Made by a program: the position numbers and the translations under genes. A DNA stretch of 64,000 nucleotides from Candidatus Micrarchaeota archaeon. GTDB taxonomy: Archaea; Micrarchaeota; Micrarchaeia; Anstonellales; Bilamarchaeaceae. Under the pieces are notes generated by a model, which saw only the letters and a program-made list of their open reading frames with translations, did not search any database and had not been told where the DNA came from. The stretch lies in NCBI GenBank assembly GCA_040757035.1, contig JBFLYM010000001.1, positions 12,222 through 76,221 on the forward strand, read 5' to 3'. Of the stretch, positions 12,838-63,830 are shown piece after piece. Each line of letters starts with the position of its first letter. Position 1 is the first letter of the stretch.

Positions 12838-15165
12838 ATGGAAATGACAAATAAAACAATAATAATATTAATACTAATTTTGATCGCAGTTTTTACTGTA
12901 ATTTATTTCGTTCAAAATTGGATTGGTAATTTGCCTTCCGCTGTTTGTTATGATTCCGATGACGGGAGAGATTACTCTGTAAAGGGAATTGTTACTTATG
13001 GTTTGGAAAGTAAAACAGATACGTGTGCATATTGTACTGGTCTGTGTATACGTGGAAGTGATAGAAAATGCAAAAGTTCTTGTGGAGCAGTAGTAGAATA
13101 TTATTGCGAAAACAACAAAATTAAATCTAAGACTTACGTCTGTGGAAATGGAAGTACTTGTAAAGATGGGGCTTGCATTTTTGTTACATCAAACACAAAA
13201 CCTCAAAACACAAAACCTTCGTGTGGCAATGGGATTTGTGAGCAGGGAGAAACAATACAAACGTGTCCCGATGATTGTGCAACGCTTTCCTGTGTCTCAC
13301 TTCCTGAAGAATGGGGGATTCACGGTTTTAACAAATGCACCTTTACCAGTGGCTCTACTTCTGAATGGCCAATTTTAACCAGGTACAATTCCGCTACGGA
13401 TAGCTATGATCCGTATGGTTTTGATGTGGATCCTCATTGCCAGTTTCCTTTCTGTAATGAAAAAAGCACAAAAATCGATTATAATGAATATGCGTTTGAG
13501 ATTACGGCAGATTACGCTCCAACTCCAGATGATGTAAAAAGAGTAATCGCTTTCATCGAATCACTTGGTTATAAAGTTGATATTTACAATGATGTTAGTG
13601 GTGTGATTAGCGACGGTTCAAATCCTAATGTCCAGATTGTTAATAATTTTAGAACAGGGTTGGGCACTACTAATGTCGGGAATACGAAAAATAGCTTGGC
13701 TCATTTTATCTTTCCTCCAAATTTCTCAAAAAAAGATAAATTACCGATTTTAGTTAATAATTTGGGATCTGGTTCTACACCAATTCGTTTTCTTTATAAA
13801 GAATTCGGTAAAGAATTCGGGGTCTCGCTTTTACTTGAAGTTGTAGCCAAATCTAAAGAAGCGGGTAGAACTGGCATTATTGGCGTTATTCCTGCTGCAG
13901 GAGGACAGGGCTCGCAGGGTCATAATGAAGAATCGCTCGATGCCTTTGCTGAAACAATCACATATCTTAAACAAAACTTCAATGCTGATAATAATAAAAT
14001 TATTATGTTTGGTAGCTCTCGTGGAGGCGGAACTACCTTAATCAGAACCGCTAATCCTAAGGGACATGATTATAATGTTACTGCATTATTCCCTACTGCT
14101 CCACCAACTGCTGTTGGAAGTATGGCATCATTAGAGTCTGTTAATATTATTGCAATAGACCATTATTACCAAATGTTTAATGGTTGGTTGTATTATCCAA
14201 ACTATACCGCAACCAAGAACGCTTGGAAATATAATTCAAAATATCCACCGCATACTCTTCAGGCGAGCGCGTGTAAGCCATTATTTAATGTTACTAATAT
14301 AGATGAAGCGGATGCAAGATCAGCAATTGGCTATGCCGATTATCAACATTTTGGTGGAAAATATATAGTCCTTAGCTACGGGACACATGATTATGTAATT
14401 CCTTATCACCTTTCAATTAAATTTGATGAGGCTTTGAGAAAAGCAGATATCCCTCATAAAACATGTATTTTTCTTAAAGAAGGCCATGGTGACGGTAGTA
14501 AAAGATGTATGAAGGAGGAGCTGGAAAAATATGTTTTAGATTATTTGACAAAAGGGATAAGTCCTCAATTACCAAATGGTCGTTATTATTATGTTGCTAA
14601 TATTACAAAACATACTTCAGAATCTGCTTTTTACATGGGAAATGAAAATGAAGGCATTACACTTCCTTTTACAGCAATTATCCCGGCTAGTTTAGACAGT
14701 AAAATAGATTTTGCTGGATATCAAAATGAATACATTGGTAAGCAACAACCAGCAGATCTTATTTTGGTTGGAGCAAAAGGAAAATCCTTCAAAGTTCAGC
14801 TTTTGGATGCGAATCATAATTTTTTAAAAGAGTGGAGCGGTATTTTTGGTCAGAACACTAGTGGTGAAGAGTACCATGTTATCAAAAGTATTCAATTTGA
14901 GTGTCCAGATACTTGTGATTATTACTGGAAATTTTGGTTTGATGGTAAGGAAATCAGTCCTTATAATACCCCCTTTGCTGATAACTCGGGAAAGCCAAAA
15001 GAGGCTATTACTAAAGTAACCACCTGGCAGCCATATATTGATGAAGTGGTAAAGTATTTAGGCTGGGAAAATCTACTTATGGGTATAACCAGCATACCTA
15101 CGTGTGGAAATCATATCCGCGAGCAATGGGAAAACGAATTAATTTGTCCTGAAGATTTCACCTAA
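12838..15165 (+). CDS. Secreted or membrane-anchored protein with an N-terminal Cys-rich module and an alpha/beta-hydrolase-like domain (S9/esterase-like).
   Basis: N-terminal TM/signal anchor (IIILILILIAVFTVIYF). About 20 Cys in the first 170 aa, with CxxC-like spacing. Candidate nucleophile elbow GSSRGG. Downstream Asp/His candidates (GTHDYVIPYH). Confidence 0.5.
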   Translation: MEMTNKTIIILILILIAVFTVIYFVQNWIGNLPSAVCYDSDDGRDYSVKGIVTYGLESKTDTCAYCTGLCIRGSDRKCKSSCGAVVEYYCENNKIKSKTYVCGNGSTCKDGACIFVTSNTKPQNTKPSCGNGICEQGETIQTCPDDCATLSCVSLPEEWGIHGFNKCTFTSGSTSEWPILTRYNSATDSYDPYGFDVDPHCQFPFCNEKSTKIDYNEYAFEITADYAPTPDDVKRVIAFIESLGYKVDIYNDVSGVISDGSNPNVQIVNNFRTGLGTTNVGNTKNSLAHFIFPPNFSKKDKLPILVNNLGSGSTPIRFLYKEFGKEFGVSLLLEVVAKSKEAGRTGIIGVIPAAGGQGSQGHNEESLDAFAETITYLKQNFNADNNKIIMFGSSRGGGTTLIRTANPKGHDYNVTALFPTAPPTAVGSMASLESVNIIAIDHYYQMFNGWLYYPNYTATKNAWKYNSKYPPHTLQASACKPLFNVTNIDEADARSAIGYADYQHFGGKYIVLSYGTHDYVIPYHLSIKFDEALRKADIPHKTCIFLKEGHGDGSKRCMKEELEKYVLDYLTKGISPQLPNGRYYYVANITKHTSESAFYMGNENEGITLPFTAIIPASLDSKIDFAGYQNEYIGKQQPADLILVGAKGKSFKVQLLDANHNFLKEWSGIFGQNTSGEEYHVIKSIQFECPDTCDYYWKFWFDGKEISPYNTPFADNSGKPKEAITKVTTWQPYIDEVVKYLGWENLLMGITSIPTCGNHIREQWENELICPEDFT

Positions 15166-31327: not shown

Positions 31328-33034
31328 CTATTTCCATTTTTCTACATCCGCAGTTCTAACCTTCATTGGAAGTATAAATTTTCTTCCGTCAAAAAGTCGT
31401 ATTATGCACTCGCGTGGATGCAGTTTTATGAACATTTCTCGTTTCGCTTCTTCCAATTCGCTTGGAGTAATGCGCTTCTTAAAAAACTCTTCAACTTTGA
31501 TTTCCATCATTGAACTCAATAAACGTGCATCTTCTCTTGTAACGCGGAACGAAATAATATTGCGCGTATTACTTATAAGCGCATCAAGCACAACTTTAGA
31601 AATTTGCCCAAGATATTGCCCTGATACATAAACAAAAAGATTGAATTTTCTGGTTTCTGCGAGTATATCTTTCACGACGCGCGTTTCTACAACCGGGAAT
31701 TCATCAATTACAAGAACGGTTGGCTTTGTGAGCTTTTCGCTTATTGCAAGCAAATACATTTGGTTGATTATCGCGCCAGCAAAAAATTTAATTATTTTTC
31801 TTCCAAAAAAGTGCGGGTTAAACGAAATTATTGTGATTGGGTTTTCAGCTACAAGATCCGCGAGCTTCTCAAGTTTTCTTTCTTTGCCCAAATAGAGTAA
31901 ATATTCACCTATAAAATTGATTACTGGAAGTATTGCATCGTTAAAATGATGCATGTAGATATCTTGAAATTCTTCGTCAAAGAATCTTCGAACTTCACTA
32001 TTGTCACAACGCGAGCTAAATTCAGTTCTTTTACTTGAATCTGTAAGTAGAAGACTGATATTTTCAAGCGTAAGCTCATCTATTGTAGCAAGAAGATGTA
32101 CAGAATAAAATACCACTCTTTCAGCATATTTATTTTCTTGCGCCATCACTGAAACAATAAGCTGTGAAATAAGTTGTGTAACAAGCGGACTCTTTTCCTT
32201 ACCAACATCCAATGGTTCAATGTAATTGTGTACGTAGTCCACTACTTTTTCATGCTCAAAAATTTTTGAAAATTCACTGTGCGGATCTATCACTATTAAC
32301 CGCGCTTCATTTCCATACTTTTTCTTGATTGCCTTTATTTGTATTTCAAGCAATTTGGTTTTTCCGCTCCCCGAAGTCCCGGTAAGTATGGTATGCTGAA
32401 GTGCGCTAAAATTGTCCAAACCTATTTTAATTGTATCATACTCAAAAATAGGGTCCGCACCTGTGATATTTATTGCTTTTGGAATGGGATCAAGAAGTTC
32501 AATATAAAAAGTTGGGTTTTTCTCCAAATCAATCTCAAAAAATTTGGTTGGATTGCCGATGAATATATGTCCTCTTCTTCCATCTCTATCTGTGGTATTT
32601 CCCATTCCATAAAATTTACCAAATATTTTTATTATTTTTATCTTTATCTCTTCTATATTTTCCTTAACCAAAAGATCAAAAAAATTTGTTTTTTCATCTA
32701 TCATTAGATAAAAATTGAACGAAAAATTGCTTTTTATAAATTCCACTTCCTTAGAATATTCATCCATCCTAAATGGAAAAAAGAGTGGCGCTTGTGAATA
32801 CATATTATCTTTATCTTCTATAAATATCTTGATTGTGGTACCATATCTCTTTATTGCAAGTTTAAGTCCGCTCAACGATAGAAAATCAGATGTGTCTATC
32901 CCCATGAAAGGAATCCTTCTCTTTATTAGATTATTAAAAAATTTGACATAATCTTCTTTGGTTATCTTTTCAGTATATATAGAAAGTTCAAGATATTTTC
33001 TCTGTTTTTTTGAAATTACCATAGGATAACACAA
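31328..33034 (-). CDS. HerA/VirB4-like (DUF87) FtsK-superfamily ATPase. Stand-alone; no NurA, Mre11 or Rad50 nearby.
   Basis: Walker A ILTGTSGSGKT, Walker B TVLVIDEFP, followed by ETRKFNL…SGQ. An N-terminal ~200-aa HAS-barrel-like region. Confidence 0.55.
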   Translation of the reverse strand: MCYPMVISKKQRKYLELSIYTEKITKEDYVKFFNNLIKRRIPFMGIDTSDFLSLSGLKLAIKRYGTTIKIFIEDKDNMYSQAPLFFPFRMDEYSKEVEFIKSNFSFNFYLMIDEKTNFFDLLVKENIEEIKIKIIKIFGKFYGMGNTTDRDGRRGHIFIGNPTKFFEIDLEKNPTFYIELLDPIPKAINITGADPIFEYDTIKIGLDNFSALQHTILTGTSGSGKTKLLEIQIKAIKKKYGNEARLIVIDPHSEFSKIFEHEKVVDYVHNYIEPLDVGKEKSPLVTQLISQLIVSVMAQENKYAERVVFYSVHLLATIDELTLENISLLLTDSSKRTEFSSRCDNSEVRRFFDEEFQDIYMHHFNDAILPVINFIGEYLLYLGKERKLEKLADLVAENPITIISFNPHFFGRKIIKFFAGAIINQMYLLAISEKLTKPTVLVIDEFPVVETRVVKDILAETRKFNLFVYVSGQYLGQISKVVLDALISNTRNIISFRVTREDARLLSSMMEIKVEEFFKKRITPSELEEAKREMFIKLHPRECIIRLFDGRKFILPMKVRTADVEKWK

Positions 33035-49446: not shown

Positions 49447-50565
49447 TTATTTTTCAGTACTTCTAAGTTTCTTTATAAGTTCTTTCAATTTCTCTTGCGC
49501 TTGTTTAATATCATTTTTTACAATTTCAAATTCACCACTTTGATATGCTCGTCCAACTTCAATCTTTCCAGAAGCATCCATTAATAGTGACTTTATTTCT
49601 CCAAGCATTGAAGAATATCCTTTTGAATTTGCTTCAGAACTTAAAGAGTCAACAACCGCTTCTATTTTGGTTATATGGAATCTTGCCCAAATATGGAGAT
49701 GTTTTTCTCGTGTAGTTTTTATAGTTCTAGTAATATCACTAATATTTTCACTACCAACTGCAGTACTTAATTCGTTCTTTGCATTTTCAGCTTCCTTCAC
49801 CATTATATCCAATTTTGATGTATCTACACTTTTATTTCTAAGAACCTTGATTGTATTATTCATATTTTCAAGATGACTTGTTATTTCATCTATTTGTGCA
49901 CGTGAGAAATTTAAAGCGACTGTTCGTATGCATCTCGTTTGTGTATCTTTTGCTGTTCCGATAAATGTTTTGAAATTAGTGTTCTCTTCAATTCTTCCTG
50001 TAATGCTATTTCTTGTTGGCCGTGCAATGGCTCTAATGGTTTGTGTAGCGTGTGTTAAACCACTCCTTGTTGACATTATTGTATTCTTAAATTCATTTTT
50101 ATTTTTTGCACTTGCAACAGTTTTTAGTGAAGTAGTATCAGCTGTAAGCCTTGAAACAGCATTCATAATCGAATTTGTATCAGAAATCCCGCCTGTCAAA
50201 TTGTTTTGATTGGCATAATCTAAAATTGATGTAACAGTCGTTGTTCTGCACTCAATTATTCTTGAGCGTAATTCCATTGTATTTGGTTTAATTGTATTTG
50301 GTTTATACGCAATAACTCCTCTAGTAATTTTGTTTCTTGTATTTGAGTCAGAAATTACATTGTCTGCAGATCTATTCCAAAATGCGCTTCCATTTGCGTT
50401 TTTTATTGTATGTGCATCTGTTGTAGCTATATCTGTGTTAGAACCAGTTACACGATCTGCAGATCCATTCAAATCCAAATATGTTTCCGAGTCTGTATTT
50501 TCAGTATTTTTAGCAAAAACACATGTAAACAACAGTATCCCTAAAAATATAAATATTAATTTCAT
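49447..50565 (-). CDS. Secreted protein rich in N-glycosylation sequons.
   Basis: N-terminal signal peptide. More than 15 N-x-S/T sequons. Thr/Ser/Asn-rich. 372 aa. Confidence 0.45.
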   Translation of the reverse strand: MKLIFIFLGILLFTCVFAKNTENTDSETYLDLNGSADRVTGSNTDIATTDAHTIKNANGSAFWNRSADNVISDSNTRNKITRGVIAYKPNTIKPNTMELRSRIIECRTTTVTSILDYANQNNLTGGISDTNSIMNAVSRLTADTTSLKTVASAKNKNEFKNTIMSTRSGLTHATQTIRAIARPTRNSITGRIEENTNFKTFIGTAKDTQTRCIRTVALNFSRAQIDEITSHLENMNNTIKVLRNKSVDTSKLDIMVKEAENAKNELSTAVGSENISDITRTIKTTREKHLHIWARFHITKIEAVVDSLSSEANSKGYSSMLGEIKSLLMDASGKIEVGRAYQSGEFEIVKNDIKQAQEKLKELIKKLRSTEK

Positions 50566-58373: not shown

Positions 58374-59135
58374 TTATCTTGTTTTAATCCACTCAAGAAT
58401 TGCGTTTTCAGCTGTATCAAAATCAACAAGTTTCCCAAATACTATTTGTTTAAGCTCTTTATTCCAATCATCTCTTTTCTTTTTTAAGCTATCAACAAAT
58501 TCCTGTTCTGAAAAAATTTCATCGTAATATTTAAGTTTTTTATTTATCAATTCAATGTTAAATTTTATCCCTTTATTCTTAATAAGAAAGAACAGATCAT
58601 AAACATCTCTTGGCTTTTTTCTTTTCATAATTGCTCTTATTTTTTCAGCTGCCACTTCATTAATACTCATTCCATTAATTATCTTAGTTGGTGCTTCATA
58701 TGCATCGAAATTTAGCTTTACTGAAAGACTATCTGCTACAAGATTCTCCCTTTTGCTTATTTCTACGTAGATATGGCACAAATCTATATCAGATGTGTTA
58801 AGTGGACCCTTAGCGCTCACGCGAAATGAAAAATTACAATCGCTGTTATTAATTCTTTTTAGTATATTTTCTACTCCAAACAATCTAAGTCCTTCTGAAA
58901 CTTTTGTATCTAGATCGTTTGGTAAATCTCCAATTGCCATTAAATCCACATCTTCGGAGAATCTATCAAGACCGTGAAAAAACCAGAGATATGTTCCACC
59001 TTTAAATACAAGTGGGTACTCTGAAAGTGTTACAAAAATAAAGAACTGTATGTAATGCTTCTCTTGCTGCCATGTTTTTCTATCATACAATTTTGCAATA
59101 GAGATTAATTTTTCCTTGCTTATCATTTCAACCAC
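58374..59135 (-). CDS. AbiEii/DUF1814 nucleotidyltransferase toxin (type IV toxin-antitoxin).
   Basis: …FKGGTYLWFFHGLDRFSEDVDLMA… is the nucleotidyltransferase signature of AbiEii. Overlaps the upstream antitoxin by 13 nt. Confidence 0.7.
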   Translation of the reverse strand: MVEMISKEKLISIAKLYDRKTWQQEKHYIQFFIFVTLSEYPLVFKGGTYLWFFHGLDRFSEDVDLMAIGDLPNDLDTKVSEGLRLFGVENILKRINNSDCNFSFRVSAKGPLNTSDIDLCHIYVEISKRENLVADSLSVKLNFDAYEAPTKIINGMSINEVAAEKIRAIMKRKKPRDVYDLFFLIKNKGIKFNIELINKKLKYYDEIFSEQEFVDSLKKKRDDWNKELKQIVFGKLVDFDTAENAILEWIKTR

Positions 59136-59695
59136 TCAGATATTTTCTTCTTTCCCCAACCATAAAATCGTTCTAAGTACTCATTTAGTTTCTTTTTGTC
59201 TAAATCATTATATATCTCTTTCACAACGTCTTTAGATGTAGTATCAAGATAAATTGCATCGATAATTGCTTTTTCAGGATCTGCTACAATAATATAACTA
59301 AAATCCTTTTTGTATTTTTTGTAGCCATAAAAAAGTCGTGACGGTATTTTGTAATATTTTATACCAAGCGAATTATACTCTCTGCTATTCGTTGTAGTAA
59401 CGCATTGAACATTTTTAGGTACCTGCTTGATGAGTTGATGAAACAACAATGCTGAAAATAATGATATATACGATGGTTCGATAAGCTGACTTGCGATAAC
59501 GAAATTATCACTGGTAAATGAAATTTTTCCCCGCAATACTTTTTCTGCAAGGCCCTTTTTTGTCAATCTTGTTGAGTATACTTTTGCAATTGTTTTTGGT
59601 TTATTTATAAGGTTTGCGAGTTGCTGTATTGAATAAAGTGCTCTGCCCGCTCGCTTGGCCATCTCTTTTATTTCATATAGATTCGTCTTTTTCAT
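59123..59695 (-). CDS. AbiEi-family antitoxin/transcriptional regulator (COG5340-like).
   Basis: N-terminal wHTH (…RALYSIQQLANLINKPKTIAKVYSTRLTKKGLAEKV…) and a C-terminal AbiEi_4-like domain. Immediately upstream of AbiEii. Confidence 0.65.
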   Translation of the reverse strand: MKKTNLYEIKEMAKRAGRALYSIQQLANLINKPKTIAKVYSTRLTKKGLAEKVLRGKISFTSDNFVIASQLIEPSYISLFSALLFHQLIKQVPKNVQCVTTTNSREYNSLGIKYYKIPSRLFYGYKKYKKDFSYIIVADPEKAIIDAIYLDTTSKDVVKEIYNDLDKKKLNEYLERFYGWGKKKISEWLK

Positions 59696-59858: not shown

Positions 59859-62231
59859 TTAAGTCTCAAGGCAATATTTTTCGCACCCAAATGGAGGAGA
59901 ATCACAAAGTTTTTTCGCGCTATATTGACCCCATAGACTAAACAAACCCGTTTTTGCAGCATTACAGCAATTAACCTCCATTTCACCAGCATCGCACAAA
60001 TATTTGATTATGGTTTCATCTACCATTTTTTCTTCTGCGCATTTCGTATTTTTGCAATTGTCTGCATTGGCAAGCCATTTGTATTTTGCAAGAACATCGT
60101 AGCCATAATCACGCAAACAATTTTTTACGTAATCAAAAAAATCTTTATTATAACTGCAGGAGGAAGGCGCAAATGCTATATCTTTTTGAATTGCGAACAT
60201 GTCAATCCAATCTTGCTGCACATTTGACCCTTCACCATAAATCCCATACAAAGCTAAAAAAATAGAAACCCATTCTTTTTTGTTTTTATCATTTGGATTT
60301 TTTTCAACATTTATATCCAATTTATCAAGATTTGAATCAACTAACCTTCGCGCTGTTGGTAAATTGTCATTCATAAATTTATACGCATACGCGCATGCTG
60401 AATCATAAGGTCTAAATGGATTGAAATCAGGATAATCATGTTCGTTTATTTTGGATGCGCATACTTTCACAACATCTGGAAGATCTTGAGGTTTGACAGA
60501 ATACTTTTTATACACCCACCATGGATATTCAATTACTTGAATAAGCCCGTATGCGCATATCTTGTCTTGTTCTTGTTGTACTTTATAACCACAATTAGTT
60601 TCTGAATCTGAGATCTGCTTCAGTTCATATTCGTTGCAATTCTTATTTTCAATAGGAACTTCGCTCACGCTACATTCATGGAAATCGCTTTCCTGCCATG
60701 CAGCTGCGCGCAAAAGTGTAGGATCCATATCAAATTTATCTGCTGCAATTTCTATAATTGGAGAAAAACTCGTGCATTTATCCAAAGAACCAGGAAATGC
60801 TTTTATGCTATCTGGAACCTTTTCGCCTTTAACACATCCTGCACAAAAAGAAAATGGTTGCGCAGCGGTTGTCTTATATGTGTCAATGTCAATTGGTTTT
60901 ATCTCTTTATCAGAACCACCTACAAATCTTCCAAAATTTGTATTAAATGCGTAATTGCAGTTTTGCGAACCGGTTGAGAATACCAGTGGGATGATATTTG
61001 GTGCATCTCCTGCTCCATGAGTGTGATATGCTTGACAAAAACCAAAATAATTAGAAAATCTTGGTTCCATTTTAGATGGATTTTGAGGATTTGTTGCCAA
61101 AGAATTTATATCTATAAACGCATAATTTCTACTATTGTCATACTTGAGAGGACCGCCGCCATAAAAACTGTAAATAGCAGCGCCTATCACTCCATTTGAA
61201 GCAAGGTTGTTTGCATTTACATAAAGCAATGAATACCCGTTTGCAACCGAAACATCAGACCACACGCATGAACTATCCAAACTTGGCGCGGCATCAAAAA
61301 GGGCGTATGATATAATAGATGGTTTTGAATATTTGTGCAATAAAAAATTTGAAAAACTTATTCCGTAGTAAATGAGCTTGTCCGGATTACAATCATTGAA
61401 ATAATGAGAGTTTATGCCATACGCAACAACATCAACATTGTCAAACAGCGTTCGGTCAGAAAATAATTTGTTAATTGCATTATATTCGCTTGTGCCGTTA
61501 AGTTTAACCCCTAATGCAATTAAACATTTTGGACAGTTGGTTTTCATTTGCGCGATTTGATTTTTTATTATAGCGTACCGGTTTACATCACTATCGTCAA
61601 GTTCTGCTTCACTTACTATCATTGCAGGACCTGCGCCATTCAAAGTTTTAGCTATCTCTCCGGCGCGTGCGGCATCAGCGTTTTCAAAATCACTGTATAA
61701 AATATATACCGGTAAGATATTTATATCCAAAAAACACTCCGCTCTATCCTTTTCAGGAAGCGAGTATTTGAAGCCTTTGCCTCCTATCAGCCATTTTACG
61801 CTCATTTTCATAGAATTATCGCAATACGCGTTCGCATCGCTAAACGAAAGAAACGAATGGCCTGCGCCAAACATAAAATATTTTATTGATTTTTCTCCGA
61901 TATAATTTTCCGTTACAAATTTTCCATAATCTTCTTCATTGATTTGCTGAAAATCACATTGTTTATTTTTAAGCGAGCGATCAAAAAAAAGATTAAGCGG
62001 AAATACCGGAATTTTATCTTTGCATATCATTGCGATACATTGGCCTGGCGGATAGTCTTTTATATCATCATTACTGTTCAAATGAAAATTATTGGGACTG
62101 AGTGTTTCAACAAGTCCGCGTTGCTTTTGTTGCGTTGCTTGCGTGTTATCTACACAACCAAAAAAGCCGAAACCAATAATTAATAAAACTGCAAACACAA
62201 TGAACATTTTTATTTTTTTAATTTTTTTCAT
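59859..62231 (-). CDS. Large secreted Cys-rich protein with a C-terminal lysozyme-like/lytic-transglycosylase (SLT)-like segment.
   Basis: Signal peptide MKKIKKIKMFIVFAVLLIIGFGFFGC. About 45 Cys. Near the C-terminus, AAWQESDF…AYGLIQVIEYPWW resembles the SLT catalytic Glu-Ser plus GLMQ motif. Confidence 0.5.
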   Translation of the reverse strand: MKKIKKIKMFIVFAVLLIIGFGFFGCVDNTQATQQKQRGLVETLSPNNFHLNSNDDIKDYPPGQCIAMICKDKIPVFPLNLFFDRSLKNKQCDFQQINEEDYGKFVTENYIGEKSIKYFMFGAGHSFLSFSDANAYCDNSMKMSVKWLIGGKGFKYSLPEKDRAECFLDINILPVYILYSDFENADAARAGEIAKTLNGAGPAMIVSEAELDDSDVNRYAIIKNQIAQMKTNCPKCLIALGVKLNGTSEYNAINKLFSDRTLFDNVDVVAYGINSHYFNDCNPDKLIYYGISFSNFLLHKYSKPSIISYALFDAAPSLDSSCVWSDVSVANGYSLLYVNANNLASNGVIGAAIYSFYGGGPLKYDNSRNYAFIDINSLATNPQNPSKMEPRFSNYFGFCQAYHTHGAGDAPNIIPLVFSTGSQNCNYAFNTNFGRFVGGSDKEIKPIDIDTYKTTAAQPFSFCAGCVKGEKVPDSIKAFPGSLDKCTSFSPIIEIAADKFDMDPTLLRAAAWQESDFHECSVSEVPIENKNCNEYELKQISDSETNCGYKVQQEQDKICAYGLIQVIEYPWWVYKKYSVKPQDLPDVVKVCASKINEHDYPDFNPFRPYDSACAYAYKFMNDNLPTARRLVDSNLDKLDINVEKNPNDKNKKEWVSIFLALYGIYGEGSNVQQDWIDMFAIQKDIAFAPSSCSYNKDFFDYVKNCLRDYGYDVLAKYKWLANADNCKNTKCAEEKMVDETIIKYLCDAGEMEVNCCNAAKTGLFSLWGQYSAKKLCDSPPFGCEKYCLET

Positions 62232-62267: not shown

Positions 62268-63830
62268 CTATAACACATTAAGCGCTTTTCTATACGCTTC
62301 AACGCTTACAAGCACAATATCGGTTCCGAGCGCAGATGAAGTAAGTTCTTTATCTCCTTTCCTTACTCGCACATTCACCCGCACGCTTGCATTACTTCCT
62401 CCTGTAATCGCATCAACATGATAAGAAACAAGTTCCGCGTTTTGATTTCCAATAGCATGATCTATCGCTTTCATGGCCGCATCAACAGGACCGTTGCCCA
62501 CAGCCGCTCCAAAAACAACATCTGGTGCATCTCCAATTTTAAGTCTTACATAGGCATTTGGAGTGGTTACATTTCCCGTGCTAACGTGTATTTCTTTAAT
62601 AACTACATGTTCTCCTTTTCCGCATTCGTTTATTTTTTGAACGCATATGATAAAATCAGCATCGCTTACCTCTAAACCAAGTTCGCCGATTTCCTTAACC
62701 ATGGCCAAGAGTTCTGCTTTTTTATCATCCGCAACTTTAAGCCCAAGCTCCTTAAGTTTGAATTCTATACTTTTTTTTCCTGAAAGTTTGCCTAATGCTA
62801 TATCATGTTTTCGCCCAACAAGTTTAGGTTCAAAAAGCTGATAAAGCCAGGGATTTTTAAACATCCCATCTACGTGTATGCCAGATTCGTGTGTAAAAAC
62901 CTTTCTTCCAATTATTGGTGTATTCCACGCAGGATAAAGATTCGAATAGCCAGCGACAAGTTTGGATACTTCATATACTTTATCCAATTTTATTGTTTTT
63001 ATGTTGTAATGCAATTCAAGATTAAGTGCAACCTGCTCAAGCGAACAATTTCCAGTTCGCTCACCAAGTCCATTTATAGTAGCATGAAATTTGTCAGCAC
63101 CAGCACCAAGTGCCGCGAGTGTATTTGCAACAGCAAGTCCAGTATCATTATGTCCGTGAAATGAAAGTTCCATATTAAATTTACTTTTATCGTTTTTATT
63201 GTCTTGATCAAGTTCACGTTTTAAGCATTTATAAAGAGAGTATGTTTTTTCCGGGGTTAGTACACCTACGGTGTCGCATATGCAGAATGCTTCAATTCCG
63301 ATTTGTTTCGCACTCAATGCAACATCGCAAAGAAATTTGAAGTCAGCTCTGCTTCCATCTTCGGCCATGAGTTCTACGACGAGTCCGCGCTCTTTTGCAT
63401 ATTGAGCGCTTTTTATTATTTCTTTAAGCGCTCGTTCCTTGCTCATTTTTAATTTTTCAGCGATATGCAAATCAGAACCTGGAAAAACAAGTCCAACGAC
63501 ATCTGCATTGGCTTCTACCACGGCATCTATATCCATGTTTACTATTCTTGCAAAAGAACCTATTTTTGCGTTTAATCCGAGACCAACTATTTCATTTATT
63601 GTTTTGATTTCAGATTTGCTGTTTACAGCAGTTCCTGCCTCTATTATACTCACTCCTATTTCGTCCAATTTCTGCGCTATCGCTATTTTTGCTCCCTGCG
63701 AAAATCTCACACCAGGTGTTTGTTCACCGTCTCTGAGTGTAGTATCAAACACGCTTATTTTAGGTGCGAAACTTAATCGTTGCGTTTCTAAATCAAGATT
63801 CATAGCGTAATCACTCTTATTCCCATCCAA
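62268..63830 (-). CDS. leuA: 2-isopropylmalate synthase / (R)-citramalate synthase family (LeuA/CimA).
   Basis: …FDTTLRDGEQTPGV…HGHNDTGLAVANTLAALGAGA…INGLGERTGN… DRE-TIM metallolyase domain plus a C-terminal LeuA-dimer domain. Confidence 0.85.
   Translation of the reverse strand: MDGNKSDYAMNLDLETQRLSFAPKISVFDTTLRDGEQTPGVRFSQGAKIAIAQKLDEIGVSIIEAGTAVNSKSEIKTINEIVGLGLNAKIGSFARIVNMDIDAVVEANADVVGLVFPGSDLHIAEKLKMSKERALKEIIKSAQYAKERGLVVELMAEDGSRADFKFLCDVALSAKQIGIEAFCICDTVGVLTPEKTYSLYKCLKRELDQDNKNDKSKFNMELSFHGHNDTGLAVANTLAALGAGADKFHATINGLGERTGNCSLEQVALNLELHYNIKTIKLDKVYEVSKLVAGYSNLYPAWNTPIIGRKVFTHESGIHVDGMFKNPWLYQLFEPKLVGRKHDIALGKLSGKKSIEFKLKELGLKVADDKKAELLAMVKEIGELGLEVSDADFIICVQKINECGKGEHVVIKEIHVSTGNVTTPNAYVRLKIGDAPDVVFGAAVGNGPVDAAMKAIDHAIGNQNAELVSYHVDAITGGSNASVRVNVRVRKGDKELTSSALGTDIVLVSVEAYRKALNVL

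Follow-up and report, generated by a model that had tools for sequence, protein, structure and literature searches.

A predicted Micrarchaeota surface lipoprotein combining a GH-A-like barrel with a diverged GH23 domain

The window (the whole stretch of DNA analysed, 64 kb in length) carries on its minus strand a gene for a 790-aa protein, which runs uninterrupted from an ATG start through its stop codon in both the ORF list and the translation (Table 1). An independent assembly, Logan contig L002, holds the gene at 100% identity with the same neighbours, and at 0.357 the gene's GC content is that of the window average. Archaeal genes for TFB, aEF-2, LSm, SRP54 and FEN1 are found in the window, and the EF-2 encoded there matches an NCBI protein from a Micrarchaeota MAG at 100% identity, in agreement with the first-pass annotation, which had placed a putative wall-cleaving enzyme in an archaeon. 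No tRNA genes were found in the 64 kb, and a sigma-70 promoter and terminator scan, inapplicable to an archaeon, gave counts no better than those of shuffled sequence.

According to Pfam, the gene lies between a LeuA-like gene upstream and an AbiEi/AbiEii toxin-antitoxin pair directly downstream, neighbours that give no functional hint. In relatives, the gene stands immediately downstream of one for a conserved membrane protein of 1600-1900 aa at 11 of 13 loci, a synteny that is broken at the query locus, and using tblastn we found in the window neither a copy of this giant neighbour nor a paralogue of the query. Pfam, NCBIfam and PDB profile searches gave the giant protein no convincing identity; its matches, to part of a P4-ATPase and to ribosomal proteins with zinc ribbons, are weak and probably spurious. 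Orthologues of the query gene in other genomes sit among core genes (CPSase, Topo VI).

Table 1. Parts of the gene and of its 790-aa product, with positions in the window.
Feature	Residues	Coordinates	Strand	Basis
Whole gene, 790-aa protein plus stop		59859..62231	minus	ORF list and translation
Stop codon of the 790-aa ORF		59859-59861	minus	
Signal peptide: Lys-rich n-region, 16-residue hydrophobic core, lipobox-like F-F-G-C26	1-26	62154..62231	minus	Read from sequence
Putative tether joining lipid anchor to barrel; low model confidence, poor conservation	27-57	62061..62153	minus	
Predicted (β/α)8 barrel resembling clan GH-A glycoside hydrolases	~58-455	60867..62060	minus	
E208 codon, conserved Glu just past β4	208	61608..61610	minus	
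D313 codon, just past β7	313	61293..61295	minus	
Inter-domain linker with C463-x-x-C466	456-484	60780..60866	minus	
Diverged GH23/SLT (family-1 lytic transglycosylase-like) domain	~485-690	60162..60779	minus	
Motif I, D503-PTLLRAAAWQES-D-F517, holding putative catalytic E514 and S515	503-517	60681..60725	minus	
E514 codon	514	60690-60692	minus	
Motif II, A560-Y-G-L-I-Q565, counterpart of G-L-M-Q	560-565	60537..60554	minus	
Motif III, degenerate F658-LALYGIYGEG668 where A-Y-N-x-G is expected	658-668	60228..60260	minus	
Helical Cys-rich C-terminal extension, family-specific	691-790	59862..60161	minus	

The N-terminus, MKKIKKIK-MFIVFAVLLIIGFGFF-GC, reads as a basic n-region and a hydrophobic core followed by G25-C26. 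A lipobox-like pattern ([hydrophobic]-x-[GAS]-C) lies inside the first 60 residues of 121 of the 140 family representatives, and its G-C is conserved in the family alignment. Since the Lys-rich signal peptide ends in a lipobox-like G-C, the protein is probably a membrane-anchored lipoprotein, with the lipid probably attached to Cys26, and not a free exoprotein. It had been described at first as a secreted Cys-rich protein with a signal peptide; the signal peptide and the Cys-richness stand, but free secretion gives way to a probable lipid anchor. The tether that follows corresponds to variable alignment columns, and pLDDT is below 50 at model residues 20-56.

Cysteine makes up 3.9% of the protein, compared with 0.25-2.4% in 20 other proteins of the window, and the number of Cys residues is 31 rather than the approximately 45 given by the first-pass annotation. 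Twelve conserved Cys fall in the barrel and two more in the linker, C463 and C466, which are kept in 98-99% of representatives although model confidence is reduced in the linker. The C-terminal extension is predicted to be helical, with pLDDT from 50 to 96; its C731 and C755 occur in at least 90% of representatives, and only close relatives share its final Cys residues. The conserved cysteines probably stabilise the protein as disulfides. The window does contain the other Cys-rich exoprotein that had been noted (12838-15165; 775 aa, 25 Cys), but the relationship of the two does not hold, as the best BLASTP match between them has E=1.8 and the other protein carries a Peptidase_S9 domain in Pfam.

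A lytic-transglycosylase-like motif had been placed near the C-terminus. AAWQESDF and AYGLIQV in fact begin at residues 510 and 560, respectively, approximately two thirds along the protein, with roughly 100 Cys-rich residues downstream of the SLT domain. The match of the query to Pfam SLT (PF01464), the family to which it had been likened, is borderline (E=0.031; 14.3 bits, below the 21.3-bit gathering threshold), though 16 of 20 homologues match this same family, and P0127, P0123 and P0130 score above the threshold with 27.8, 32.9 and 29.9 bits, respectively. The motifs of these three members align with those of the query, and relatives over the threshold show the canonical WxES, GLMQ and AYNxG, their ACGLMQ aligning with motif II of the query.

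The Glu-Ser and G-L-x-Q signature recognised at first is conserved in a Micrarchaeota family of ~340 representatives. Among the 140 representatives aligned, motif I keeps E514 in 122, S515 in 119, R508 in 127 and D503 in 121, and motif II keeps G562 in 138, L563 in 95 and Q565 in 120. Motif III is degenerate: the query subfamily retains its Tyr and Gly without the Asn, and distant members have LLAYNxG. In at least one relative, P0112, Asn stands in place of the catalytic Glu.

In the predicted model, a helix (pLDDT ~96) has E514 at its C-terminal end, and the region adopts a lysozyme-like α+β fold that matches lytic transglycosylases, as the first-pass annotation had anticipated. Neither of the two results that would have overturned that annotation, absence of such a fold and a motif not kept in homologues, was obtained. 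PDB profile searches with the SLT region returned lytic transglycosylases exclusively, all as weak matches, and aligned the motif I segment with the WNES of EtgA. A single-sequence PDB search with the query gave no match, NCBIfam gave no meaningful match for the query or four relatives, and a word-based homologue search with the P0123 SLT region recovered just one fragment, of the same family. From these alignments and the predicted fold, the protein is a real, diverged enzyme of GH23 type, of putative activity, with a new two-domain architecture.

The known proteins closest to this domain are the bacterial family-1 lytic transglycosylases (GH23; MltC, MltE/EmtA, MltF and the soluble Slt70), which share the helix-end Glu-Ser and the G-L-x-Q with the query. 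Like the query, the Mlt lipoproteins have a lipobox-type N-terminus, and family-1 enzymes are multi-domain proteins with the catalytic domain on the C-terminal side. By contrast, the query has only 12-20% identity to them, scores below the Pfam threshold, inserts ~45 Cys-rich residues between motifs I and II, lacks the Asn of motif III, carries an extra helical Cys-rich tail and a fused GH-A-like TIM barrel, and belongs to an archaeon without murein. Its best PDB sequence-profile match is EtgA (PDB 4xp8, 8urn; E=0.005), a small single-domain protein, unlike the query, whose catalytic segment DPxxLxAxxWxES aligns with it residue by residue. In the profile alignment, the spacing from Glu-Ser to GLxQ is 45 residues in the query and 18-20 in EtgA. 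EtgA also carries an extra Asp, the second residue ahead of the GIMQ glycine (TYDIGIMQ in 8urn; TYNIGIMQ in the D60N mutant 4xp8), at a place where the query has Ala (KICAYGLIQ). Lytic transglycosylases cleave MurNAc-β-1,4-GlcNAc non-hydrolytically to yield 1,6-anhydroMurNAc; for the query, a lysozyme-type hydrolytic mechanism may be possible too.

The N-terminal half contains a GH-A-like TIM barrel that was absent from the first-pass annotation. A (β/α)8 fold is present in the predicted model, and its resemblance in Foldseek searches against the PDB is to mannanases, xylanases, galactanases and glucuronidases rather than to wall hydrolases. Identity to clan GH-A (GH5, GH10, GH53, GH26, GH39, GH2) is just 8-14%, and residues 58-455 match no Pfam or NCBIfam family, whether in the query or among 20 homologues; in matching no Pfam GH family, the query differs from the defined members of the clan. 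A weak Pfam match to TIM-barrel_EndoS (E=0.039) falls outside the barrel, at residues 630-674 of the SLT region, is found in one of 20 members and is attributable to chance.

Strand 4 of the model ends two residues ahead of E208, a position occupied by Glu in 132 of the 140 representatives and by Asp in 5 more, and which we take to be the acid/base catalyst site of GH-A enzymes. The Asn-Glu pair of clan GH-A is replaced by Ser/Thr-Glu in the query family, Asn preceding the Glu in only one of 140 representatives. D313, just past β7, presumably corresponds to the GH-A nucleophile site; the nucleophile Glu of the clan is missing here, and the position is variable in the family (D in 73 of 140, S in 28, E in 10, A in 10).

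The profile search recovered 341 cluster representatives with E<=1e-3, of which 224 remain at E<=1e-30; most are full length (750-1000 aa), and all named members belong to Micrarchaeota, Anstonellales, Bilamarchaeaceae, Gugararchaeum or 'ainarchaeum'. Pfam recognises just two further domains among the 36 longest members, Peptidase_M23 (five members, down to 5.6e-18) and NlpC/P60 (one member, 1.2e-8), which replace or extend the C-terminal extension. Both are peptidoglycan endopeptidase families. In the query itself, Pfam detects neither M23 nor NlpC/P60 and no known module for binding peptidoglycan; LysM, SH3 and PG_binding were found neither there nor in the 36 long relatives.

Proteins of a comparable kind are known from other DPANN archaea. 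In the passages covered, SLT-domain surface proteins of Woesearchaeota and Pacearchaeota are read as binding or degrading bacterial walls (PMC8204110; Vigneron et al. 2022, PMC9723730). Likened by description, these DPANN SLT/GH23 surface proteins (fam00969) have in common with the query an SLT domain, a DPANN host and a predicted surface location. They come from another DPANN lineage and reach, in those passages, ~3000 aa, and the same passages report no TIM-barrel partner or lipobox (PMC8204110, PMC9723730); the query-family profile recovered only the 341 representatives, most of them full-length and of the same architecture. For Micrarchaeota MAGs, extracellular GH23 and M23B have been noted, one MAG with an extracellular M23B peptidase being reported without extracellular CAZymes (PMC8561730). 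Experiments have shown that M23 peptidoglycan hydrolases of archaea kill bacteria (PMC12352652); 'Woldo' (Halogranum salarium) is a precedent for the deployment of secreted peptidoglycan hydrolases by archaea against bacteria. M23 occurs in some relatives of the query as well, but Woldo combines M23 and PG_binding_1 modules of bacterial origin, whereas the query has no M23 or recognised wall-binding module. We found no other GH-A-like barrel fused to an SLT domain among the Pfam and PDB matches or in the papers covered; the architecture joining the barrel to a diverged GH23 domain is new, while DPANN SLT proteins as a kind have already been reported.

On balance we favour, as the likely though far from certain reading of sequence and model, a surface enzyme of Micrarchaeota whose diverged GH23 domain would act on peptidoglycan, that is, on murein from another cell. 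The signal peptide would export the protein and the lipid on Cys26 would tether it to the outer face of the membrane. Glu514, at its helix end, would serve as the single general acid/base cleaving the β-1,4 MurNAc-GlcNAc bond, and the GH-A-like barrel, with its conserved Glu208 and no conserved nucleophile, might bind the glycan strand or make a second cut. The substrate could be the wall of a bacterium that is touched (host, prey or competitor) or wall debris taken as food. Because this tiny symbiotic archaeon is without murein, a bacterial wall is the most likely substrate, and the most likely purpose of the protein is attack on, or docking to, bacterial cell walls. As some relatives are fused to M23 or NlpC/P60, the targeting of another cell's envelope gains indirect support. 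We infer the peptidoglycan substrate, the catalysis and the biological purpose from sequence comparison, and several points speak against this reading: the sub-threshold Pfam score, motif III without its Asn, the 45-residue motif spacing, the loss of Glu in P0112, the lack of M23, NlpC/P60 and peptidoglycan-binding modules in the query and the uninformative gene neighbourhood. Few DPANN archaea have a known host. Those known for cultured Micrarchaeota are wall-less Thermoplasmatales, archaea and not bacteria, which counts against a bacterial target and in favour of a glycan other than peptidoglycan.

Such a glycan is the basis of an alternative that we consider rather unlikely, in which an active lysozyme/GH23-type glycosidase would act on chitin-like β-1,4-GlcNAc polymers, on glycoprotein glycans or on a glycocalyx, whether the cell's own or an archaeal host's, with the barrel adding a second glycosidase or binding activity. 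The polysaccharidase-like resemblance of the barrel and the lack of LysM, SH3 and PG_binding modules agree with it; against it, every one of the best structural and sequence matches is a peptidoglycan lytic transglycosylase, Z being higher than for chitinases, and peptidoglycan endopeptidases are the only domains found added to the scaffold. The protein might also be a non-catalytic adhesin, both glycosidase-like folds being carbohydrate-binding modules that grip a partner cell, as would fit the variable D313, the degenerate motif III of the query and the Asn of P0112. Attachment is also considered as a role of DPANN SLT proteins in the part of Castelle et al. covered (PMC8204110). We nevertheless hold an adhesin to be quite unlikely, since the retention of E514 and E208 despite divergence to ~22% identity is as expected of an enzyme.

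Specialised bacterial transglycosylases such as EtgA, VirB1 and FlgJ open a path for envelope-spanning machines. The query could likewise be an autolysin or space-maker of the archaeon's own envelope, remodelling an unrecognised murein- or pseudomurein-like layer or clearing the way for such a machine: its best PDB sequence match is to EtgA, a type III secretion-associated transglycosylase, the pairing with the giant membrane protein could be one of machine plus helper, and the family occurs widely in the lineage, lying among core genes in other genomes. This reading is very unlikely in our view, as the giant partner is absent from the window and, among ~20 scanned of its 79 ORFs of at least 120 aa, Pfam recognised only housekeeping archaeal genes and none for murein or pseudomurein synthesis. 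We know of no sacculus in Micrarchaeota, and pseudomurein, having β-1,3 bonds and no MurNAc, resists lysozyme-type enzymes. The adjacent AbiEi/AbiEii pair and the broken synteny could finally suggest that the gene does not belong to the host but travels with a virus or mobile element and encodes a transglycosylase of endolysin-like or conjugation-associated type; with a GC content equal to that of the window, orthologues adjoining core genes in other genomes, the gene order kept in the independent assembly and no PHROGs match for the query, which leaves a phage endolysin origin unsupported, this is extremely improbable.

If the favoured reading of a peptidoglycan-directed surface enzyme is extended to the related loci, the lipoprotein and the giant upstream membrane protein might together form a Micrarchaeota-specific apparatus that breaches bacterial peptidoglycan at the contact site, the orphan barrel, devoid of a nucleophile, being a new type of muramidase or glucosaminidase with substrate-assisted catalysis. 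We regard this proposal as speculative and unlikely; were it true, bacteria and not archaea would be the partners on which many non-acidophilic Micrarchaeota live as episymbionts or predators. The putative membrane-anchored enzyme kept by Micrarchaeota, for which bacterial peptidoglycan is the best-supported substrate, offers a testable handle on whether many Micrarchaeota deal with bacteria by attachment, predation or wall scavenging. The architecture of GH-A-like barrel and diverged GH23 domain is now annotated as hypothetical, and CAZyme surveys may therefore miss the family. If active, these disulfide-rich enzymes could serve as new antibacterial lysins.

The C-terminal half of the query protein very probably carries a genuine GH23 fold and catalytic motif. 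Its ORF runs uninterrupted from an ATG start to a stop codon in the ORF list and translation, and Logan contig L002, an independent assembly, has the identical gene with the same neighbours. The first-pass annotation had reported a match of AAWQESDF and AYGLIQV to the SLT/lysozyme-like catalytic Glu-Ser and G-L-M/I-Q signature; both motifs are found, from residues 510 and 560, and are conserved in homologues, with E514 as Glu in 122, S515 as Ser in 119, G562 as Gly in 138 and Q565 as Gln in 120 of the 140 family representatives. The fold too is present in the predicted structure, where it covers about 150 of the 318 residues of this half; the rest consists of a helical Cys-rich tail and a long β-hairpin with Cys residues inserted between motifs I and II. 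By fold and motifs the family belongs to GH23, with the query itself below the Pfam SLT (PF01464) cut-off of 21.3 (14.3 bits, E=0.031) and its motif III degenerate (Asn missing). Pfam SLT is matched by 16 of 20 homologues, and the members P0123 (32.9 bits), P0130 (29.9) and P0127 (27.8) pass the threshold with classical WxES, ACGLMQ and LLAYNxG motifs in the same alignment columns as WQES, AYGLIQ and LALYGIYG of the query. Using family profiles against PDB sequences, the SLT region was matched to the lytic transglycosylases EtgA (E=0.005), LtgC and EmtA, the query segment DPxLLRAxxWQES aligning with EtgA DPLILKAIAWNES.

A barrel in the N-terminal half had escaped the first-pass annotation. The full-length model (pLDDT 81.3, pTM 0.81) places eight β-α units at residues ~58-455, and Foldseek against PDB supports a GH-A-like barrel (E from 4e-6 to 2e-4), a region for which neither the query nor its homologues gave any sequence family match in Pfam or NCBIfam. 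Glu208, two residues past β4, occupies the clan GH-A acid/base position and is Glu in 132/140 representatives; the β7 nucleophile position is Asp313 in the query and variable in the family (D 73, S 28, E 10, A 10). With the fold present and this position variable, the modelled barrel has the GH-A fold but lacks a defining catalytic feature, and we speculate that it binds glycan strands or performs other chemistry, e.g. substrate-assisted catalysis.

The secretion proposed for the query stands as far as signal-peptide features go: the N-terminus, MKKIKKIK-MFIVFAVLLIIGFGFF-GC, has a basic n-region and a 16-residue hydrophobic core, followed by a Gly-Cys that alignment shows to be kept in the 20 closest homologues. 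As a lipobox-like pattern also lies within the first 60 residues of 121/140 representatives, a lipid-anchored surface protein seems more likely than a free exoprotein. The gene call on L002 starts at Met9 (P0001, 782 aa); we prefer Met1, since translation from there includes the Lys-rich n-region that a signal peptide should have. Some 20-30 nt before Met1 there is an A/T-rich, TATA-like stretch, AAAATAAAAA. Cysteines number 31, rather than the approximately 45 first counted, and make up 3.9% of residues versus 0.25-2.4% in 20 other window proteins. A second large Cys-rich protein (3.2% Cys), the only other in the window, does exist as annotated, and is unrelated to the query in sequence; its C-terminal half, preceded by a Cys-rich N-terminal region, is a Peptidase_S9/prolyl-oligopeptidase-type α/β hydrolase (E=4e-11), and a link between the two was rejected.

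Features discussed, with coordinates in the window, in the protein or in the related loci
Feature	Location	Strand	Remark
Query ORF	59859-62231	-	790 aa
Query N-terminal start region	62204-62231	-	Met1 vs Met9 start choice
Family-specific helical Cys-rich tail	residues 691-790		predicted model
Other Cys-rich protein	12838-15165	+	775 aa, 25 Cys, N-terminal membrane/signal segment
LeuA/citramalate-synthase-like gene	62268-63830		one flank of query; Pfam scan
AbiEi/AbiEii toxin-antitoxin pair	58374-59695	-	directly downstream of query; Pfam scan
Exported protein	49447-50565	-	372 aa
HerA/DUF87- and TrwB-like ATPase	31328-33034	-	568 aa
Giant neighbour loci	L001 7815-9998 and 4874-7942; L003 4618-9894; L004 708-5948; L005 238-3039
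Giant neighbour loci (continued)	L007 164-5023; L010 959-5800; L011 1147-5940
Giant neighbour loci (concluded)	L012 108-2585; L013 393-5483; L014 114-5780

A word-indexed search recovered 20 relatives (64% down to 22% identity), one of which NCBI names 'transglycosylase SLT domain-containing protein [Candidatus Micrarchaeota archaeon]'. When 1.84 billion representatives were searched exhaustively with a profile, 341 proteins reached E<=1e-3 and 224 of them E<=1e-30, mostly full length (750-1000 aa) and mostly annotated as hypothetical; all named members are from Micrarchaeota lineages (Micrarchaeia, Anstonellales, Bilamarchaeaceae, Gugararchaeum or 'ainarchaeum'). So small a total argues against the profile having drawn in the many bacterial SLT proteins, which makes this a distinct family restricted to Micrarchaeota lineages. 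SLT proteins have been described before in DPANN archaea, and the kind is not new; in the literature searched, we did not find the Micrarchaeota-wide architecture of lipobox, orphan GH-A-like barrel without nucleophile, diverged GH23 and Cys-rich tail, with its optional M23 or NlpC/P60 domains and conserved giant neighbour.

From sequence features, conservation and predicted folds, we infer the catalysis, substrate and purpose as follows. The exported protein would be lipid-anchored at Cys26 on a flexible tether of ~30 residues (pLDDT <50), probably stabilised by disulfides among ~21 conserved Cys, and on contact with a bacterial wall its GH23 domain would cleave MurNAc-β-1,4-GlcNAc with Glu514 as single acid/base, the barrel binding or further processing the glycan; it would work like a membrane-bound family-1 lytic transglycosylase. 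EtgA has an Asp two residues before GIMQ, whereas the query has Ala, which is compatible with, though not proof of, a transglycosylase-type single-acid mechanism. A non-catalytic adhesin is improbable, as E514 and E208 are retained, and an autolysin or space-maker, serving the archaeon's own envelope or a large machine, we regard as more improbable still. Mobile-element cargo is very improbable: the query has no PHROG match, its GC content is unremarkable and its orthologues sit in core-gene neighbourhoods.

The substrate cannot be read from the fold alone. GH23 chitinase, archaeal chitinase and GH124 cellulase are also (weaker) structural neighbours, and a glycan other than peptidoglycan is an unlikely alternative. 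The strongest indirect evidence is domain accretion: the 36 longest representatives carry no extra Pfam domains apart from Peptidase_M23 (in 5 members, E down to 5.6e-18) and NlpC/P60 (in 1 member, 1.2e-8), both peptidoglycan endopeptidase families; the carriers include Micrarchaeota proteins, for example VVB65971.1 from Ca. Gugararchaeum adminiculabundum. A scaffold that repeatedly gained wall peptidases would most plausibly act on peptidoglycan. The literature favours this view: two reports interpret SLT-domain surface proteins of Woesearchaeota/Pacearchaeota as bacterial-wall binders or degraders (PMC8204110, PMC9723730), extracellular GH23 and M23B enzymes of Micrarchaeota MAGs are mentioned in passing (PMC8561730) and archaeal M23 hydrolases were shown to kill bacteria (PMC12352652). 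On balance, the query is probably an enzyme that is anchored at the cell surface, cleaves peptidoglycan and is directed at bacterial walls. In M23-fused VVB65971.1 (P0112), WQNS replaces WQES (residues ~496-520), with loss of the putative catalytic Glu, and some lineages may retain the scaffold as a peptidase carrier.

Of 13 related loci, 11 encode a homologous protein of 1600-1900 aa directly upstream of the TIM-barrel/SLT gene and on its strand, and this pairing persists where identity between the transglycosylase protein and the query drops to ~25%. The giant neighbour combines a signal peptide and membrane segments with a zinc-ribbon-like CxxC...CxxC element at its C-terminus; Pfam, NCBIfam and PDB gave no convincing match for it. 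The pairing raises the idea of a joint wall-breaching apparatus, which we hold to be unlikely. A search of the 64-kb window did not find the giant neighbour gene; therefore the pair is split in the query genome or the partner is elsewhere in it.

The window DNA is archaeal, encoding TFB, aEF-2, LSm protein, SRP54, FEN1 and a β-CASP RNase, and its EF-2 shares 100% identity with a protein of an NCBI 'Candidatus Micrarchaeota archaeon' MAG. No murein-related genes were seen among ~20 window ORFs scanned with Pfam. Downstream of the query, an AbiEi-like antitoxin candidate (190 aa, without Pfam match) overlaps the AbiEii nucleotidyltransferase toxin (PF08843, E=3.9e-25), and at locus L003 a similar AbiEi_2 gene lies ~8.5 kb downstream of the query homologue. 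The 372-aa ORF product starts with a clear signal peptide, MKLIFIFLGILLFTCVFA, matches nothing in Pfam and is a further uncharacterised exported protein. The HerA/DUF87-like ATPase (Pfam E ~4e-7), 27 kb from the query, could be part of a DNA-translocation or secretion system.
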